The position numbers and the translations under genes are program-made. Of a DNA stretch of 24,517 nt, positions 1,686-18,283 are shown piece by piece (within the stretch, counting starts at the first letter, position 1; every line of letters begins with the position of its first letter). The DNA is from a virus. Taxonomy: Duplodnaviria; Caudoviricetes. The stretch is from the IMG/VR virus record IMGVR_UViG_3300005581_000128, positions 1 to 24,517 of that record; one strand, written 5' to 3'. The notes under the pieces were generated by a model. That model was not told the origin of the DNA. It saw only the letters and a program-made list of their open reading frames with translations, and made no database searches.

Positions 1686-4600
1686 TCAAACATCCTCAAC
1701 GATGGTCATGCGTTGTCCAACAGCCCAGTTCCACAAAGGATACGGATCGCCGGAAACGCTGTCGGTGGCGTAGGAAATGGCCGGGTCGGAGTCACAAATG
1801 TTGCCCGCGCCGTCGTATGTCGCGTTGCCAGCGTATTGAACCCACGGGTTCGCAGCCGTGCTGGTTTCGCGCGCCATCGTGATGACGATTGAGGATTTCT
1901 TGACTTCGATGGCGCTGATCGTGATCGACCCGGCATCGTCACCCAACCGAAAGCCGCGATTGGCGAATGTGGTGGGGGTGGTTTCGAGGTATGCGGCCTG
2001 GACTTGCAGCGGCGGTTCTGGCGTGTGGTATTCCAACAGCACCTTGTCGCCTCGAAACCATGCGGCGGTGATGTGGCAGGGGAGCCATCCCTCGCCCGCG
2101 AAAACTACCCGGTCAAATACCTTGGCGAACTGCTCCCCAACCCACCGATATCCGTCGCTTGTGAGGTGTTTGGTCCCGTCGTCCGGGTAGGCGTAATACG
2201 GACCAATCAGGTAGATATTTGGATTGTCCTGCGCCGCCGAAAGCTGAGCATTGCCGATAGCGGATATGTCAGAACCGCTATCCCAATCGGATGAAGTCTG
2301 GCACAGGAACAAGCCGGGGTCGGGGGTTTGGACGGCCTCCGCTTTCGCATCGGTTGCGAAGTCGGTCGCGAAAGTCTCAAGCGTTGCCTTGTAGGATGCT
2401 TCCGAGGTTCCGGCGGCGTAGTCCTGTTCGCCTTGCAGGAGGCACAAGCCCGCGATGCCATACGAAGACCCGCCGGCCGCCGTGTGCGCCTTGGCCATCA
2501 GATCCGTTAGCTGGCCGTAATACTCGGTCGGTGTCGCGCCCTTGGACAGATCGGCCAGCGCGGTTCCACCCTTCCCGGCGGCGTTGACCACCAGTTGCCG
2601 CGTGCTGTCCGAGGCAAGGTTGGCCCTCGCCAACTGCGACCGGCGCAGGTAGTTGACCATGCCGATCGCAGGAACTTCCGCGCCGGCCGTGATCGTTAGA
2701 TCAAGCATCGTGGCGGAACCGGACTGCGTGAATACGTCCGTTGCGACGGTATTTGCCGGCCGCGAGCCGAACGAGAACGTTCCATCCGGGCCGGCCGTGG
2801 TGCTGATTAGGCCCGCCGATCCGAACCCGAGCGCGAAGCTCTGGCCGTAGTGGATGATATGGCTATAGGTCCAACATGGCGTCGCAATGGTCGGGTTCGT
2901 CTGGCTGCGAACGGCCATGGATTGCGCCAGAGCTTGCGCGTCGCGGGCCTCTAGCTCAATGCCTGTGTAGGCGCCGGAAGTGCCGCCGCTGGCTTCATCG
3001 ACGTATTTTTTCGTGGCGGCGTGGTCCGATGCAGTTGGTTCGGAATTGAGCGTCAGGGTGCCGGTGCGGACCGAGCCGAAAACGTAGACGCCATCAATCG
3101 CTTTGAAGCCGAATGGTTGGCTGGTGGCGTCAACATCCAGCGCCCCGAACAGGCCCCACCGCTGATCGCCGGCATAGGTGTTGTTGGACGATACCGAAAC
3201 GGTGCCGGCGGTCACTACGGTTGCCGTGGCGCTGTCCATGACCGCCGTGGTGATCGTGCTCTTGGTCGCGATCAGGTCCGGCGTTTTGACCTGGCCGAAT
3301 GAATGCGTCCCGTCCGCTTCTGACCATCCGACCGCCGCGCCCGTGCTGTCCACATCGACGGCCCCGAACAGTCCCCACCGCGCATCCGCCGTCGCGGCTG
3401 TCGCGCCGCCGGTTATGGCCGTCCCCACCGTTGCCGTGCCCGACACCGCCAGCGTCGGGATGGAGCCGGTCGTGAACGTGCCGGATGCTCCGGTCACCGC
3501 GCCGGAGGATGTGATGGTGCCGGCGTTGACGGCGGTAATCGTGCCCACCGTCGATACCAAAGTGCCGACCGTGCCCGTGGTCACGACTGCGTCTGTGACG
3601 GTCGCCTTGCCCAACGTGACCGTCCCAGCGTTGGCGGTTAGGGTTCCGATGGTTCCTGTGGCAATGGTGCCGGTGGTGCCCGCCAGATGCCCGATGGTGG
3701 CGGTGCCACTGGCCGAAAGGGTGGTGGCGGCCAGGTCGGTGATCGTGCCCTTGCCCAGCGTCACGGTGCCCGCGTTGGCAATCAGAGTGCCGATCGTGGC
3801 AACGCCAGTCGCCGCAAGCGTAGTAGAGGCAAGGTCGGTGATTGTGCCTTTCGACAACGATACCGTGCCGGCATTCGCAATCAACGTCGCGATGGTGCCC
3901 TTGCTGACAACGGCATCCGTGACCGTGGCGCTTGCCAGCGTGACAGTCCCCGCGCTCGCTACCAGCGTCCCGACCGTCGCGCTTGTCGCCGCCGCGTGTC
4001 CGATCGTGGCCGTCCCGGTCGCGGCCAGTGTCGTTGCCGTCACGTCCGTGATCGTGCCCGTCGCGGCGGTGACCTTGCCCGATACCGCGACCGTTCCGGC
4101 GTTGATGCTGGTAATCGTGCCGGATGCACCGATGATGGCGCCTGCCGCTGTGACGCTGGTGGCCGAGACGTGCCCCACCGTTGCCGTGCCCGACACTGCC
4201 AGCGTCGGCGCCGTCAGGTTGGTAATCGTCCCCGCGTCCGATTGCAGCGATTGCAGCACCGCCGCGCCCGCGTCGATATCGACCGTGCCGATATTGGCCG
4301 TCGTCAGGTTCGCCGTGCCAGCGCCTAGCGTGCCCGTGACCGTGAGCGCCGTCAGTGTGCCGGTGCCGGTCGTGATCGTCACGGTCCCGGCATTGAGGCT
4401 TGTCAGGGTCGCCGTGGTTCCGACGATCGTGCCAGCGTTGAGGCTGGTGATCGTCGCCGTCTGTAGCAGCGCGTCGCCGTTGTCGATATCGACGGTGCCT
4501 GCGTTCAGTTTTGTGAACGCGCCTAGCCCCACCGTTGCCGTGCCGGACACTGTGAGCGTGTTGATAGAGCCGGTGGCGAGCGTGCCAGTGCCGCTTTTGA

Positions 4601-4850
4601 TGTCGATGGTGCCGGCGGTCAGGCTGGTGATGCTGCCCACATCCAGCGTTGCCGTGCCGCCCGTGATGATAACGTCATTCGCAACGATGGTGCCGGTGCC
4701 GATTGCGTCAATCAGCCCGTTCATCACCTGTTCGGCGGATGCCTTGCGAAGCGGCGTTCCACCCGTGCCGGGCTGGATGACCAGCCAGTCCGACGGCGCA
4801 ACGGATGTGACGGTCGGGAGTTGGGCAATCTCGGTCGAAAGGTCAGTCAT
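1686..4850 (-). CDS. Long tail fibre/spike with Thr/Ala/Gly pentapeptide-periodic shaft and C-terminal SGNH (sialate O-acetylesterase-like) hydrolase domain (1054 aa)
   Basis: TAATG coupling at 4850. About 430 aa of GTIT/TLxA repeats, fibre motif HAATKKYVD, then SGNH blocks HYGQS, AGKGGT, LLQGEQD and DDGTKHL. Confidence 0.85.
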   Translation of the reverse strand: MTDLSTEIAQLPTVTSVAPSDWLVIQPGTGGTPLRKASAEQVMNGLIDAIGTGTIVANDVIITGGTATLDVGSITSLTAGTIDIKSGTGTLATGSINTLTVSGTATVGLGAFTKLNAGTVDIDNGDALLQTATITSLNAGTIVGTTATLTSLNAGTVTITTGTGTLTALTVTGTLGAGTANLTTANIGTVDIDAGAAVLQSLQSDAGTITNLTAPTLAVSGTATVGHVSATSVTAAGAIIGASGTITSINAGTVAVSGKVTAATGTITDVTATTLAATGTATIGHAAATSATVGTLVASAGTVTLASATVTDAVVSKGTIATLIANAGTVSLSKGTITDLASTTLAATGVATIGTLIANAGTVTLGKGTITDLAATTLSASGTATIGHLAGTTGTIATGTIGTLTANAGTVTLGKATVTDAVVTTGTVGTLVSTVGTITAVNAGTITSSGAVTGASGTFTTGSIPTLAVSGTATVGTAITGGATAATADARWGLFGAVDVDSTGAAVGWSEADGTHSFGQVKTPDLIATKSTITTAVMDSATATVVTAGTVSVSSNNTYAGDQRWGLFGALDVDATSQPFGFKAIDGVYVFGSVRTGTLTLNSEPTASDHAATKKYVDEASGGTSGAYTGIELEARDAQALAQSMAVRSQTNPTIATPCWTYSHIIHYGQSFALGFGSAGLISTTAGPDGTFSFGSRPANTVATDVFTQSGSATMLDLTITAGAEVPAIGMVNYLRRSQLARANLASDSTRQLVVNAAGKGGTALADLSKGATPTEYYGQLTDLMAKAHTAAGGSSYGIAGLCLLQGEQDYAAGTSEASYKATLETFATDFATDAKAEAVQTPDPGLFLCQTSSDWDSGSDISAIGNAQLSAAQDNPNIYLIGPYYAYPDDGTKHLTSDGYRWVGEQFAKVFDRVVFAGEGWLPCHITAAWFRGDKVLLEYHTPEPPLQVQAAYLETTPTTFANRGFRLGDDAGSITISAIEVKKSSIVITMARETSTAANPWVQYAGNATYDGAGNICDSDPAISYATDSVSGDPYPLWNWAVGQRMTIVEDV
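3423..4552. repeat. Intragenic direct repeats in the fibre shaft
   Basis: ccccaccgttgccgtgcccgacacYgccagcgtcgg at 3423-3458 and 4173-4208 (35/36 identical, 750 nt apart), with a third partial copy at 4527-4552. They encode (PTLA)VSGTATVG. Confidence 0.9.
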
Positions 4851-11100: not shown

Positions 11101-12186
11101 ATGGCTAAACCCAAGGGCATGGTCGAGATGCGTCAGGAAGGAGGTTGTCGCAACATCAAACTGTTGCTGTGCCCGCGCCATTGTGACGGGCATGTTCGCG
11201 AATACGTCATCCACGCCCTGCGCCGCGCGCATCATGGCGGGGAAGATCGTATCCGCCGTCAGCTTGCCTTCCGAACCCATGGCACGGAGGGCGCCGACCG
11301 ACGTGCCGAGTTCCTTCGCCAGCGCTTGGGCGAACATCGGCATATTTTCAAGGATGGATCGGAGTTCGTCGCCTTGCAGGACGCCAGATGCCAGGGCTTG
11401 GCCTAGCTGTTGCGTCGTCGCAGCGGTTTCCTGCATCGACGCGCCGGAAACAATGGCGAATTTCTGTAAGCCATCGACCAGCTTTAAGACCTGATCGTTG
11501 GTGGCGCCTACATCCTTCGCGGCAATCGAGAACCGCTGGAATGCGCCCGCGCTGTCTGTCGCCGCGATGCCGGTTTGGCGGGATGATGCGGTCAGTGCCT
11601 CGAAAATCGAGGCGCCCTGTTCGGAACTGCCGACCGTTGCGGACAGGCGGGCAATGGCCGCGTTGGCAGCGTCGCCTGTTGTGGCAATCGCCTTCATGGC
11701 GACGGCCATGCCGGTTGCGGCCGCAGCACCAGCAACGACAAGCGGATTTACGCCAGCGAGGCGCCCGCCCAGGCTTTGGAACACGCCGCCGGTTTCGGCG
11801 GTCTGTGTGGCAAGCGAACGGGATGCCGTCTCGGCCTGCCGCATACCGGCGGTCTGTGCGGCCTGCGCTGCGGTGATGCGAGCTTGTGCCGCCGCCATGA
11901 GGGTTGCGGCCCGTGCGGCATTCTCACCGCCGCGCTGCACGATCGTATTGAGGCGGTCATAGTCCCGCGTTGCGTCACGGACCGCCTGCGACAGCGGGTC
12001 GTAACGGCGCGACAGAGCATCCAGAGACCGCGCCTGGCGGCCCATGCTCTCGACTTGCTTGAGGGTGGCGGCTTCGATCTTGCCGCTGTCGCCGATGACC
12101 TTATCAGCGGCCCGGCGGAACTCGTCAGCGCCTTGTTGCGCCTTCCGAGCGTCAATCGACAGTGCGAGGGATTGGCTATCGCTCAC
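8146..12186 (-). CDS. Tail tape measure protein (1346 aa)
   Basis: Longest ORF, Ala-rich and helical, directly after the chaperone pair (GTGA overlap); tape-measure motif QLGQALASGVLQGDELRSILENMP; Gly-rich hydrophobic middle segment. Confidence 0.95.
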   Translation of the reverse strand: MSDSQSLALSIDARKAQQGADEFRRAADKVIGDSGKIEAATLKQVESMGRQARSLDALSRRYDPLSQAVRDATRDYDRLNTIVQRGGENAARAATLMAAAQARITAAQAAQTAGMRQAETASRSLATQTAETGGVFQSLGGRLAGVNPLVVAGAAAATGMAVAMKAIATTGDAANAAIARLSATVGSSEQGASIFEALTASSRQTGIAATDSAGAFQRFSIAAKDVGATNDQVLKLVDGLQKFAIVSGASMQETAATTQQLGQALASGVLQGDELRSILENMPMFAQALAKELGTSVGALRAMGSEGKLTADTIFPAMMRAAQGVDDVFANMPVTMARAQQQFDVATTSFLTHLDHALGFSHKLAEALKVAANLVDRIRRFTGGSTGAERQAELIAGVEQQAATVDAYNQAINDARAAGGDPQAVAMLERTRDDAAAELRKFRAELAQINQQATLTDEAEQAKASESRLAAEAVSHRKSVEELQKKYDKDFTIRKEYDEGVKKLEAARNSGAVTEADYLKISTAMLKERDEALAKLTKTEDTHKAGVKTTTKAIEEQVSAYQKGMDSLNKTIEETDQATQAQIRITAAYDGTQGSLDRVQAQEKAHAAALKAGITPAMEDYEATVSRLSESYLRSTDAAREFQHAQSSVTALFDTIGNAADRLGQGLVDAFLSGSGAAVNFGNIAKSALASVATDIVKMGFINPARNALLGSSAPTLSAALGATGSGGGGLSSIFGGLSNASTLTGITDAFGLTNIGGQLSAFGDTLGLTGSGGLFNGIGGGISSILNTSLWSGPAGSLATTAGAEFGGAAGLAAGSPVTLGGLLGGVGLGFGAGSLAGGFLQSSLNKTGPGPTIGAGAGSVAGAAIGSIIPGIGTLIGGLLGGVLGGAGGGLIGPRPATPFSATGLTADNGMLSVGRTFSQIVDTTAEVNALQQQVSALNSLLASTGARIANGVSSDNYGQARLIGGNSGQWLNFGQGDGRPGDLNAAFGELRFTSDNPMLQKGLAGQSFGTAEALQAAATEILQFVDVTAPALKALSMTEASYGIGSLATSIEALRTQFDAAKVTADKLGYAEFDLIEARDRAIKAANDNATRELTNIDRSLTARLYAARGATSGNVQMQLDAQLLLFDAETEAQRDTFSKQLRSIYGEAFKETQAYGEQMALLEETRGAERLATAKSYLDAINTVQVQSTVQADRAASTAAGIVRNITDYVQGIKFGGESPLSSGERYMAASEQFNRTVSAARSGDGNALSSLTRVAETFRTASRAQFGSGAQSVRDFDRIVSALEGVATMPAESLTSAIFTTETRTQTQTLVMELRDLKAELSRLRDDVRRTASAPSSARAA

Positions 12187-12455
12187 CGCTTCCTGCCCTT
12201 CCCGCGCTTTGACGTTTCACGATTGGCCCAGCGCATGATGTCGCGCGCGGCCTGTTCAGGATTTGCCGGAGGAGGCTCATCCTTGTCATCTGAACCCCAC
12301 GGGTTCGTCTTCTTTACGAAATCAATCTTGCCGGCAATCGCCAGATGCAGATGGCCAAGGTTCGCATTCAGGACGACATCGGGGGGCCAACCGAGCCACC
12401 CCATTGCCGTCTGCGCCAACTCGGCCGCCCATTCATCCAGCGTTAGGCGTTTCCC
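12183..12455 (-). CDS. Tail assembly chaperone, frameshifted C-terminal part (lambda gpT analogue)
   Basis: The -1 frame is open from the slippery site: GGG AAA CGC CTA ACG CTG GAT GAA TGG GCG GCC GAG TTG GCG CAG = (GK)RLTLDEWAAELAQTAMGWLGWPPDVV..., joining track ORF 12183..12419. Confidence 0.85.
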   Translation of the reverse strand, partial: GKRLTLDEWAAELAQTAMGWLGWPPDVVLNANLGHLHLAIAGKIDFVKKTNPWGSDDKDEPPPANPEQAARDIMRWANRETSKRGKGRKR

Positions 12456-12796
12456 TCGCTGGCCTCAGCCGCCGGTTCATCGGGGGTTTCCGGGGGCATC
12501 TTGCCGCCGTTCATGAGGCACCGGATGTAGTCGAGAACGGGCATCAGGGTCGTATCGTTCAGGCCGGCGCGGAACAGCTTGGCGGACAGCGCGTTGTTGT
12601 CCTTGTCGGGAATGGACGCGCCTACCTTGATGATTTCCGCGATGCCGTCGAAGTCCTGATTGATTACCTTCTGGAACGTGTTTCGAAGCCCACCATGGAG
12701 GCGGGACAGCGTGCGGATGGCGTTCAGAGTCGGGCGCAGGGTGTAGGCATCGTCGCCAAGCGTGATGACGACTTCGCCATCGTTCAGGTTTGCCAT
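12443..12796 (-). CDS. Tail assembly chaperone (lambda gpG analogue, GTA gp10-like) (117 aa)
   Basis: VVITLGDDAYTLRPTLNAIRTL N-terminus, acidic Pro-rich tail, position after the tube genes, AAGGAA RBS at 12804-12809. Confidence 0.88.
   Translation of the reverse strand: MANLNDGEVVITLGDDAYTLRPTLNAIRTLSRLHGGLRNTFQKVINQDFDGIAEIIKVGASIPDKDNNALSAKLFRAGLNDTTLMPVLDYIRCLMNGGKMPPETPDEPAAEASEGNA
12449..12455 (-). other. Programmed -1 ribosomal frameshift slippery heptamer G GGA AAC
   Basis: Minus strand reads GAG GGA AAC GCC TAA: an X XXY YYZ heptamer in the correct phase, just before the chaperone stop, at the conserved lambda G/GT position between tube and tape measure genes. Confidence 0.9.
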
Positions 12797-12882
12797 GTCG
12801 GGGTTCCTTGTGTCGGGGTGTCGGGAGGTGGCGAGACGGCGCCCCGACAGCGCCGCCTCGCCTTGCAGTCCGGCCGGACTAC
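12796..12882 (-). promoter_or_regulatory. Structured intergenic leader: 14-bp palindrome, 13-bp hairpin with TGTCGGG loop, three CCCGACA repeats (candidate pseudoknot)
   Basis: Palindrome AGTCCGGCCGGACT 12867-12880; stem arms 12850-12862 and 12830-12842 (one G-U on the mRNA); loop 12843-12849; loop complements at 12819-12825, 12811-12817 and 12796-12802. Confidence 0.7.
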
Positions 12883-13355
12883 GAGGCGCCGGTAAAGATC
12901 GGCGTGTTGATTTCCAGGATGATCGTTGCGCGGATCACCTGATTGACGGCCCCGAGCGTGGTCCGAAACGACATGACCTTCGCGCCGAAGTAGACCGTAT
13001 CGTAGGAGGCATCAGCGCCCAAGATTGTGATCTTGAAGGGGTAGGTGTCCTGATTGCCCGCCACGTAGGACTTGAGCAGAGCTTGCCCTGTGTCGGTCAG
13101 GTCCTGGCCGATGGTGATCTGGAACTGGCCGTCGTTGTTGCCGCCGCGCAGCTTGTAGGTCCGGCCATCCACCACGGGCTGAAACGGGACCGTATCGTAG
13201 ACCCGGCCGTATTCGCCCATGCTTTCGATCAGGCCGATTTCGGTTGCGATGGTCAGACCTTGGAAGTCGCCGATCGCATCGGCAGCGGCCTCGATGTTGG
13301 TTAAAGCGGTAGCCGACGTATAAAGTCGGGAACCCAATACGCCGGTTACAGCCAT
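12879..13355 (-). CDS. Major tail tube protein, short paralogue (158 aa)
   Basis: TEIGLIESMGEYGRVYDTVPFQPVVDGRTYKLRGGNNDGQFQITIGQDLTDTGQALL is a siphovirus tube-type signature; directly precedes the chaperone. Confidence 0.88.
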   Translation of the reverse strand: MAVTGVLGSRLYTSATALTNIEAAADAIGDFQGLTIATEIGLIESMGEYGRVYDTVPFQPVVDGRTYKLRGGNNDGQFQITIGQDLTDTGQALLKSYVAGNQDTYPFKITILGADASYDTVYFGAKVMSFRTTLGAVNQVIRATIILEINTPIFTGAS

Positions 13356-13379
13356 GGCAGTGATCCTTCAGTGTGAGGG

Positions 13380-14504
13380 TTAGTCTTGACGGAGGTAGAG
13401 GTAATCAACCGTCATCGTCCGGCTCGACGTGGTGCGAGCCGATGCCGCCAGCGTGGGGTAAAGCGTCACCCCGGTTGCCGCCGCCGTCGTCATCTGCGAA
13501 CCGGCAATCACGCCGTTGATGTAGAACGTAGCATCCCCGCTGGTGTTCGTTTCGATGCGGAGGGTGATGTATGTGTTGGCAACCGGCGCAATGGCGCTGT
13601 TCTGCGCGGTTTCGTCCGAATTGTTGTTGACGCCGGTCAGCCAGATGTTGTCGGTGGCCATGCTCGTATCGAACATGAACCCGATGGCGTCCGTGGCGTT
13701 GGTCGTGATCGTGTCCGCCGATGCCGCGCTTTCAATCGGGATTTCCAGCGCGGCTTTCTGGTCCGTCCAGCCGAAGAACATTGAAACGGTGGTGATAGCG
13801 GACAGTTTCAACCGCGCCTCAAGCACCTTCGCGCCGGCCGCGAGCGTGTAGCCCGTGTCGCCGATCGCCTGCGTTCCGTCCGCCGCAAAGCCGGTGCCGG
13901 CGTCGCCTGTCACCATGACCAGGGTGTTCGAGGAAATGACCGGATCGACTGCCAGGTCATCCGAACCGGAGAACAGTTCGTAATGCGTCAGCGAGGCGCC
14001 GGTATCGAACGTGTCATACAGTTCGGCCGGGTCCACCGTCACGATCGGGCTGTTGATTTCCAGCATGGACGTTGCCGAGAACACGGCATTGACCGCGCCA
14101 AGGGTGGAGCGGAACGACATGGGCAGGGCGCGGAAGAAGACCGTCGAGGGGCCGCCGACCGAGGATGGCGCGTCGTTGAACTCGATGCGAAAGCCCCAAT
14201 TGTCCTGCGTCGCGGCGTTCGCGGCGTTGTAGAGCAATTCCTGGCCATCGTCGGACAGGTCTTGCCCGACCGTGAGCGTCATCTGGCCGTCGTTGTGGCC
14301 GCCCTTCAGCTTGAACGTGCGGCCATCGTAGACCTGCTGGAAGGTGACCAGATCATAGACCCGGCCATATTCGCCGAACTGCGTGATTAGACCCACCTCG
14401 GTCCAACTCTGCGCCGAAAATTCGCGCTCCGTGTCAATGGTGGACGCGATCGCCGCATCCGAAATGAACAGCCGCGTGCCAAGCACGCCTTGAGGGGATG
14501 CCAT
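13380..14504 (-). CDS. Tail tube protein paralogue with C-terminal ConA/GH16-like lectin domain (374 aa)
   Basis: The first ~157 aa align end to end with 12879..13355; the remainder has LEARLKL, TLRIET...ATFYINGV and terminal VDYLYLRQ, typical of ConA-like folds. Confidence 0.85.
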   Translation of the reverse strand: MASPQGVLGTRLFISDAAIASTIDTEREFSAQSWTEVGLITQFGEYGRVYDLVTFQQVYDGRTFKLKGGHNDGQMTLTVGQDLSDDGQELLYNAANAATQDNWGFRIEFNDAPSSVGGPSTVFFRALPMSFRSTLGAVNAVFSATSMLEINSPIVTVDPAELYDTFDTGASLTHYELFSGSDDLAVDPVISSNTLVMVTGDAGTGFAADGTQAIGDTGYTLAAGAKVLEARLKLSAITTVSMFFGWTDQKAALEIPIESAASADTITTNATDAIGFMFDTSMATDNIWLTGVNNNSDETAQNSAIAPVANTYITLRIETNTSGDATFYINGVIAGSQMTTAAATGVTLYPTLAASARTTSSRTMTVDYLYLRQD

Positions 14505-17830: not shown

Positions 17831-18283
17831 TTACGCCAGAACCGGGCTATCGGTCGTCGCGGAGGCGATCACGGTCGATCCCTGCGTGGTCGGGACGCGG
17901 GACGCGTTGTATTGGATGGCAAAGATGCCATCGAACGGCCCGTTCGCGGTCACGTGGAACAGCTGCGCCTCGATGTAGCGGTAGGGAGGGCGCACCACGT
18001 CCAGGATGATCAACTTGTCGTCCGCGTCCGACGCGCCGGCCGTGAAGGTCGCGCTGCCGGTCAGCAGAGCCATCGCGCCCGTGGAATTGGTCGTTGCCCC
18101 CGCCGCTTTCAGCGTCAGCACCGACGTATCCAAGACGTTGCCCATCGCCGCGATGAAACACACGCTGTCAAAGCCGTCCATGTCGATGATGGTGGCCTTG
18201 GTCGGCGTGGCGGAAGCGGCGCCAGCGCCGTCCGCCGAAACCCGCGTGATCTTGGTATTGTTGAGGAGGTTGTGGATGTTCAT
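17831..18283 (-). CDS. Putative capsid cement/decoration protein (150 aa)
   Basis: Immediately after the capsid gene and before the terminator; IIDMDGFDSVCFIAAMG...PYRYIEAQL jelly-roll-like pattern; AGGA RBS. Confidence 0.72.
   Translation of the reverse strand: MNIHNLLNNTKITRVSADGAGAASATPTKATIIDMDGFDSVCFIAAMGNVLDTSVLTLKAAGATTNSTGAMALLTGSATFTAGASDADDKLIILDVVRPPYRYIEAQLFHVTANGPFDGIFAIQYNASRVPTTQGSTVIASATTDSPVLA

Follow-up and report, generated by a model that had tools for sequence, protein, structure and literature searches.

The tail tube and tail assembly chaperone genes of this phage are separated by an RNA element in which the loop of a long hairpin covaries with copies of its complement around the ribosome binding site of the chaperone gene. 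The loop probably forms alternative H-type pseudoknots with these copies that set the frequency of chaperone translation. The element has a defined anatomy, is conserved, changes loop and copies in concert, and keeps a fixed position at the start of the downstream gene. Dozens of other phages share it, Caulobacter phage phiCbK among them, and Rfam has no entry for it. The module is not tail-specific, and in many relatives it is extended by a putative decoy hairpin on the upstream side and by a stem that pairs the Shine-Dalgarno sequence (SD).

The window, that is, the whole stretch of 24,517 nucleotides analysed here, carries on its minus strand part of the structural operon of a siphophage, with genes for terminase, portal, protease, capsid, tail and tape measure (assigned by matches to PHROG- and Pfam-type profiles). 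The 117-aa ORF downstream of the element (Table 1) is considered a gpG-type chaperone because of its position between tube and tape-measure genes, a sub-threshold match to Phage_TAC_11, and the heptamer G GGA AAC before its stop codon, which recurs in relatives. GGGAAAC or a similar heptamer is found close to the 3' end of most related chaperone genes; the available text of the phiCbK genome paper names GGGAAAC as the site of phage Colossus and mentions a chaperone frameshift (PMC3556154). Directly 5' of the 158-aa tube gene, positions 13380-14504 (minus strand) encode a protein of 374 aa whose N-terminal domain resembles a major tail protein (phrog_158, E 2e-13); this gene pair is seen again in G001 (L or G with a number labels collected loci). 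The tail fibre protein encoded at 1686-4850 (minus strand) includes a domain of the SASA acetylesterase type (PF03629). No sigma-70-like promoter is detected in 12000-13800, a scan that says little for this host group. RNA runs match in small shares, with none of their contigs spanning 12486-12863.

Table 1. Features of the tube-chaperone region (positions in the window).
Feature	Position	Strand	Evidence
Tail tube (major tail) gene, 158 aa	12879..13355	-	phrog_158 major tail protein, E 3e-7; tblastn to annotated tail tube genes
P0, 14-bp perfect palindrome; as RNA, predicted hairpin with self-complementary loop	12867..12880	.	sequence, fold
P1 5' arm	12850..12862	-	sequence, fold; stem retained with differing sequences in homologues
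P1 loop UGUCGGG, putative pairing donor	12843..12849	-	sequence, fold, homologue comparison
P1 3' arm	12830..12842	-	sequence, fold
Loop complement copy 1, 3-4 nt past P1, tight pseudoknot geometry	12819..12825	-	duplex -12.6 kcal/mol
Loop complement copy 2, ends at -15, adjoins SD, best-conserved register	12811..12817	-	duplex -14.4 kcal/mol
Shine-Dalgarno AAGGAA of chaperone gene	12804..12809	-	sequence
Loop complement copy 3, ends on A of AUG	12796..12802	-	duplex -14.4 kcal/mol
Tail assembly chaperone (gpG-like), 117 aa	12443..12796	-	phrog_6454, E 6e-22 (unknown function); PF11836 Phage_TAC_11, weak, sub-cut-off
Slippery heptamer G GGA AAC, predicted -1 frameshift, G/GT type	12449..12455	-	sequence
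gpT-like downstream frame, 5' of tape-measure gene	12183..12419	-	ORF list; phrog_7493

The first-pass annotation had described a gap of 82 nt, a 13-bp stem with the 7-nt loop UGUCGGG, three downstream occurrences of the exact complement CCCGACA, the third ending on the A of the AUG, and a perfect 14-bp palindrome over the tube stop codon. All of these are found base for base on the minus strand, with one of the 13 stem pairs being a G-U on the mRNA. ViennaRNA adds a closing U-G pair to the hairpin (P1), which reduces the loop to GUCGG, and the fold stands out from shuffled sequences (z = -3.3, with 0 of 200 shuffles equally good). The linkers from P1 to copies 1, 2 and 3 are 3, 11 and 26 nt. 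A U tract is absent after the stem, as had also been noted, so that the stem does not qualify as an intrinsic terminator, and the minus strand holds 0 terminator-like sites in 12000-13800. The description of the gap as almost fully structured is overstated: its 3' half comes out unpaired in the predicted fold. The chaperone gene itself contains a fourth CCCGACA (12604..12610), and the heptamer occurs 10 times in the whole window versus 5.7 expected, a count reached by 4 of 100 shuffles. Since this count is just mildly raised, the significance of the copies rests on their conservation.

Relatives of the tube and chaperone genes were drawn from viral, metagenome and genome collections as well as from named phages, and comprise 91 distinct tube-to-chaperone gaps plus 4 whose next gene was not matched by the chaperone profile (95 gaps). 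Stem length alone (at least 12 bp, at most 60 nt from the AUG) selects 34 of these, one of which (L125) is identical to the window. Conservation of the loop/repeat complementarity, on which the earlier proposal depended, is borne out: 30 of the 34 gaps contain a complement of their own loop, versus 3.0 expected from shuffling of the downstream part (at least 6 Watson-Crick pairs, observed complements 6-9 nt; the homologue counts are uncorrected for relatedness). The mean complementary run is 6.9 for the own loop versus 4.1 for loops of other classes, which attain 6 pairs in 23% of 722 cross-tests; permutation among 13 class representatives gives p = 1e-5, with classes defined from the loops and kinship ignored. 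The loop cores of the 30 elements are UCGG (20), UGGG (4), UCAG (3), GCGG (2) and CCAG (1), and the copies, one to four per element, change accordingly. The window before the SD matches the own loop in 23 of 30 elements (14% for other-class loops) and the start-codon window in 14 of 30 (10%), the start-codon copy being absent from the other 16. In L192, L201 and L264 the AUG copy is altered together with the loop. We note that covariation was counted by structure-anchored scripts, as MAFFT alignments misaligned the copies, and that L138, L146 and L147 carry the element by eye but stand outside the script-based stem/loop counts. Taken together, a real RNA pairing of loop and copies is very likely.

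The element is dispensable for this tail type, since 61 of the 95 gaps fail the stem filter and most of these are without it. Most of the remaining gaps are short, or contain a plain UUCG-type hairpin as in Pseudomonas phages. The tube-chaperone gaps of L197, L198 and L204 hold a different multi-helix structure of about 140 nt that shows no loop/copy match.

The first two exact-pattern scans for the element returned chance matches for the most part. A blind pattern consisting of loop, complement and SD, applied to 10 of the 64 parts of the viral collection, yields 120 loci, 19 of which have a stem of at least 10 bp around the loop (two of them already in the protein-selected set). The hairpin-bearing loci stand directly before an ORF in 17 of 19 cases, versus 8 of the 101 others. 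Two features outside the search pattern distinguish them as well: an upstream hairpin whose loop displays the same complement (H0; 16/19 vs 2/101), and a stem of 4-6 bp that pairs the SD and encloses a downstream copy (P2; 14/19 vs 5/101). P2 shows a compensatory change from CCUU/AAGG to CCCU/AGGG. An upstream complement to the P1 loop is found in 17 of the 19 hits. H0 starts 1-12 nt past the upstream stop codon in 12 of 17 rows and the linker between P1 and P2 is at most 5 nt in 15 of 17, both counts covering 17 of 20 rows. The element in the window has no upstream complement and no H0, and its anti-SD pairing is 3 bp; in the protein-selected set, anti-SD pairing is barely higher than in shuffles (24/34 vs 18.1). 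A covariance model built from 14 loci of the blind type, with the window excluded, recovers the window element with 36.5 bits (E 1.4e-8). The next match, at 18185-18273 with 17.4 bits, lies in a coding region without the loop and was rejected. Applied to 151 host genomes with 27 candidates scored per genome, the model returns 2 weak matches, neither of which shows loop/copy pairing by eye; with just 27 candidates scored in each genome, this is no proof of absence.

The genes downstream of the pattern hits are diverse. Eight loci precede chaperones of another family (phrog_313), mostly behind Phage_tube_2 tubes, three precede the CBASS inhibitor Acb3 and one a GDP-mannose dehydratase; unknown ORFs are also found. 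In L400, L419 and L429 the element is directly 5' of the anti-CBASS Acb3 genes (PF25187), which suggests that this counter-defence gene is under post-transcriptional control.

Among named phages, the element is found in 12 of 22 records, namely phiCbK, Rogue, Colossus, CcrSC, Bajun, Bambus, RcXuper, RXM, R5C, Azospirillum phage Cd, MinM1 and RpAliso; the 22 records were picked non-randomly from tblastn/blastn hit lists, and 11 of the 12 were flagged by script, RpAliso being recognized by its fold outside the script-based count. In phiCbK the element lies between gp92 and gp93. Complements are present on both sides of P1 in 9 of the 12 records; RXM and MinM1 have one upstream and none downstream at the threshold used, and R5C has one downstream only. 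Azospirillum phage Cd and L563 show a new loop class, UUGGUCG, that is matched by the H0 loop as well as by the downstream copies. The hosts are alphaproteobacteria, save for MinM1 (Synechococcus). The annotated start of gene 41 of Azospirillum phage Cd (L548:1408) is inside the element; judged by the sequence, the AUG about 87 nt further on, behind an SD, looks like the true start. In EBPR siphovirus 3 (L549:1346-1588) the polarity is swapped: the long stem displays GCCGACAC, the upstream hairpin displays its complement, and a third loop matches sequence near the SD.

Pairing of the P1 loop with its copies can be cast as a mechanism. A second helix of 6-8 bp with a crossing loop of 0-1 nt fits an H-type pseudoknot. 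The loop would engage a single copy at any moment. If it pairs 5' of the SD, with copy 2 (perhaps copy 1), the SD and the AUG would stay accessible; if it pairs with copy 3, the spacer and the A of the AUG would be masked. The balance between the registers would set initiation. Given the similar duplex energies of its registers, the window element may act as a rheostat between an open state (copies 1-2) and a start-masking state (copy 3), and we read the window as such a variant because H0 is missing and the anti-SD pairing is merely 3 bp. In forms with H0 and P2, pairing of the P1 loop with the downstream copy would open P2 and free the SD (ON), as the linker between P1 and P2 is too short for an intramolecular kiss of both loops, whereas a P1 loop kissing H0 would keep the SD covered (OFF). 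H0 may be melted by a ribosome that terminates on the upstream gene, and translation would then be coupled over about 90 nt in the manner of the repZ pseudoknot. Control of translation initiation by the element is a reasonably likely outcome; the ON and OFF signs of the registers are tentative, with somewhat less than an even chance of being correct. For the multi-register tuning that the first-pass annotation had proposed, the structural half has good support, as loop and copies covary with the AUG copy included; the functional half draws what support it has from position.

That position is informative. In L130, L134, L157, L159 and L161, P1 is 114-664 nt away from the tube stop and still adjoins the chaperone SD. 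The retained distance to the AUG, in spite of the growing gap to the tube stop, ties the element to the chaperone start and bears on an unlikely alternative, namely that the element acts at the level of RNA abundance, as a 3'-end protector, a processing signal, or a pause or Rho-dependent attenuator by which tube mRNA would be held at a higher level than the mRNA for chaperone and tape measure; the pseudoknot would then stabilise the element or mask a C-rich Rho site. Such an action would suit a long G+C stem directly behind a highly expressed structural gene, the C-rich repeats, and L073, in which the element remains at the tube stop, 5' of an inserted gene. It is at odds with the missing U tract, with a spacing that is kept to the AUG and not to the stop, with copies that overlap the region from SD to AUG and covary there, and with L401 and L429, in which the element is found just behind terminator-like hairpins and 5' of non-tail genes. 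Extra genes are inserted between tube and chaperone in L073 (769-1131), L134, L129 and L159; in L073, copies that resemble CCCGAC accompany the inserted gene and are also kept, in partial form, at the displaced chaperone start. Upstream of P1, L130, L157, L159 and L161 have a longer, A+T-richer form with additional conserved helices between H0 and P1, and in three of these four loci a GAAA tetraloop replaces the palindrome.

The palindrome is left unaccounted for by the pseudoknot model. Immediately 5' of P1, a perfect palindrome of at least 10 bp is present in 19 of the 34 elements of one set and in 12 of the 17 of another, versus 2-3% in shuffles and tiled windows, and the 34-gap set contains 18 different palindrome sequences; a perfect 12-mer palindrome is found in 33 of 62 elements. 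Several are predicted to have 0.0 kcal/mol as lone hairpins and -15 to -20 as duplexes. Internal single mismatches across the 62 elements are G-U in 8 cases, A-C in 0 and other in 3 (p = 0.008), a pattern that points to pairing on the mRNA strand and is equally compatible with a hairpin and a dimer. Functional RNA homodimers are described as rare in the accessible text of PMC7357161. An intermolecular action, in which late transcripts would pair via the palindrome and the P1 loop would kiss the copy-bearing loop of the partner, so that translation tracks mRNA concentration, would make use of these observations, and the short linker between P1 and P2, which bars a kiss of both loops inside one molecule, permits it between two. 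Nonetheless, L130, L157, L161 and L216 have a GAAA-type loop or no palindrome, the G-U pairs would equally suit the stem of a simple hairpin (3 of the 8 are in the central four bases), and the predicted dimer energy of -18.9 kcal/mol carries no weight because any perfect palindrome has a favourable predicted dimer. We consider the intermolecular reading quite unlikely. The pseudoknot, the stop-to-start relay and the palindrome could also be parts of one portable, RNA-only module of alphaproteobacterial phages, in which one loop serves several registers in cis, a relay spans about 90 nt from stop to start, and a palindrome dimer senses mRNA concentration, and which came to serve tail chaperones as well as an anti-CBASS gene and a sugar enzyme; so broad a generalisation is doubtful.

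The first-pass annotation had also offered the repeats as binding sites of an autoregulating protein, which the comparison disfavours, as the repeat sequence varies with the loop. Short direct copies around a ribosome binding site are typical of translational repressor sites, and repeats and palindrome could be bound, as RNA or as DNA, by a protein of the phage or its host, with the loop complementarity being one site in two orientations. The multiple short direct copies that flank the ribosome binding site agree with this, as does L175 (1672-1779), where copies are retained and the matching loop is lost. The strand test based on G-U pairs between loop and copies is likewise not significant (20/259 vs 6/80, p = 1; internal positions only, post hoc, 9/192 vs 0/55, p = 0.21). 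A protein site is nevertheless improbable: the motif exists in at least five forms that change in step with the loop, the inverted copy is invariably at the hairpin apex, the module precedes unrelated genes, and the palindrome has no fixed sequence. Repeats that have no matching loop are seen in L156 (974-1054) as well as in L175, and may reflect decay or an assembly error. A neutral by-product of local duplication and template switching in G+C-rich spacers is scarcely credible, for although C-rich spacers before the AUG are common in such loci and slippage can yield short tandem copies, the element is conserved in 12 named phage records and across tube and chaperone families that are unrelated, its spacing is fixed, and three separate helices covary.

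The preferred reading, alternative pseudoknots at the chaperone start, concerns a step on which tail assembly hinges, namely the balance of chaperone products. It is well known that this balance, the G:GT ratio, is set by frameshifting. In lambda, a 30:1 ratio of G to GT is given as crucial in the available text of PMC5009743. For a setting of the chaperone start relative to the tube gene we found no description in the open-access literature searched, and the element represents an apparently uncatalogued RNA family, supported by covariation, at this start. Its presence in phiCbK between gp92 and gp93 makes it directly testable in Caulobacter, and its second use, in front of the anti-defence genes for Acb3, suggests that phages employ the module as a general device.

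The search of Rfam 15 that had been suggested gives 0 matches at the gathering threshold in the window and thus no named family; at E values up to 10, neither 500 nt of the window nor 40 related loci have a hit close to its gathering score. The aspS motif (RF02930) aligns weakly, through a G+C hairpin that shows GUC in its loop and precedes an SD; it scores 14.8 bits versus a gathering score of 42.5 and is not seen in the 40 related loci. Fremin 2023 lists ten unnamed DNAVirus_ csRNAs from IMG/VR within 25 bp of TAC_4/5/7/10/12 genes (supplement file 5). None is listed there before TAC_11, and tail genes are unmentioned in the main text as available. The terms 'pseudoknot', 'stem-loop' and 'palindrom' are absent from the accessible text of the phiCbK genome paper (PMC3556154). 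No description of the element was found in the open-access literature searched. The element appears to be an uncatalogued phage RNA family with support from covariation, the TAC candidates of Fremin 2023 being known by listed position and not by alignment.

The c4 antisense RNA of phage P1 (Rfam RF01695) has a layout with one upstream and one downstream target; the Rfam c4 model matches neither the window nor any of the 40 related loci. The CI RNA of phage P4, with seqA and seqC, resembles the layout of 17 of the 19 blind hits, though not that of the window, which has no upstream complement, in that a central sequence is complementary to one upstream and one downstream target on the same transcript, but CI is described as a processed, trans-acting immunity RNA that causes termination (PMC4825925, available text), whereas the element has a single loop, belongs to a late operon and shows no sign of processing. 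The operator pseudoknot of T4 gene 32 and the GP20 and GP32 motifs are likewise cis-regulatory structures of phages directly 5' of a start; as far as the available text of PMC10690425 describes them, they are known or proposed sites for the downstream protein, whereas the sequence of the element varies with its loop and its downstream genes are unrelated.

By analogy, the closest mechanism is the translation-activating pseudoknot of ColIb-P9 repZ, to which, together with pMU720 repBA, the element is likened by layout; a sequence relation is not claimed. In repZ, as described in the available text, a loop becomes able to pair with sequence just before the SD once translation of an upstream ORF terminates, and an antisense RNA competes by kissing the same loop (PMC4705826). 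A loop complement immediately 5' of the SD is common to both and is present in the element family, as are a putative rival kissing partner for the same loop and a nearby upstream stop codon. A stem that would mask the SD is a likely further parallel for the single-copy forms (14 of 19) and a doubtful one for the protein-selected gaps (24 of 34 against the 18.1 expected); in the window it has 3 bp. The element is not a member of the IncI/IncB rep switches on account of its gene context: these have a leader peptide upstream and a rep gene, whereas its flanks are a structural gene, the tail tube, and the chaperone. The competitor is an antisense RNA in trans in the plasmids and a cis-encoded H0 or additional copies in the phages, and the element differs further by an AUG start with a good SD, up to four downstream registers and the palindrome. 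If the proposed mechanism holds, the repZ paradigm would reach beyond plasmids into phage morphogenesis, in the form of a pseudoknot switch whose competitors are encoded in cis.
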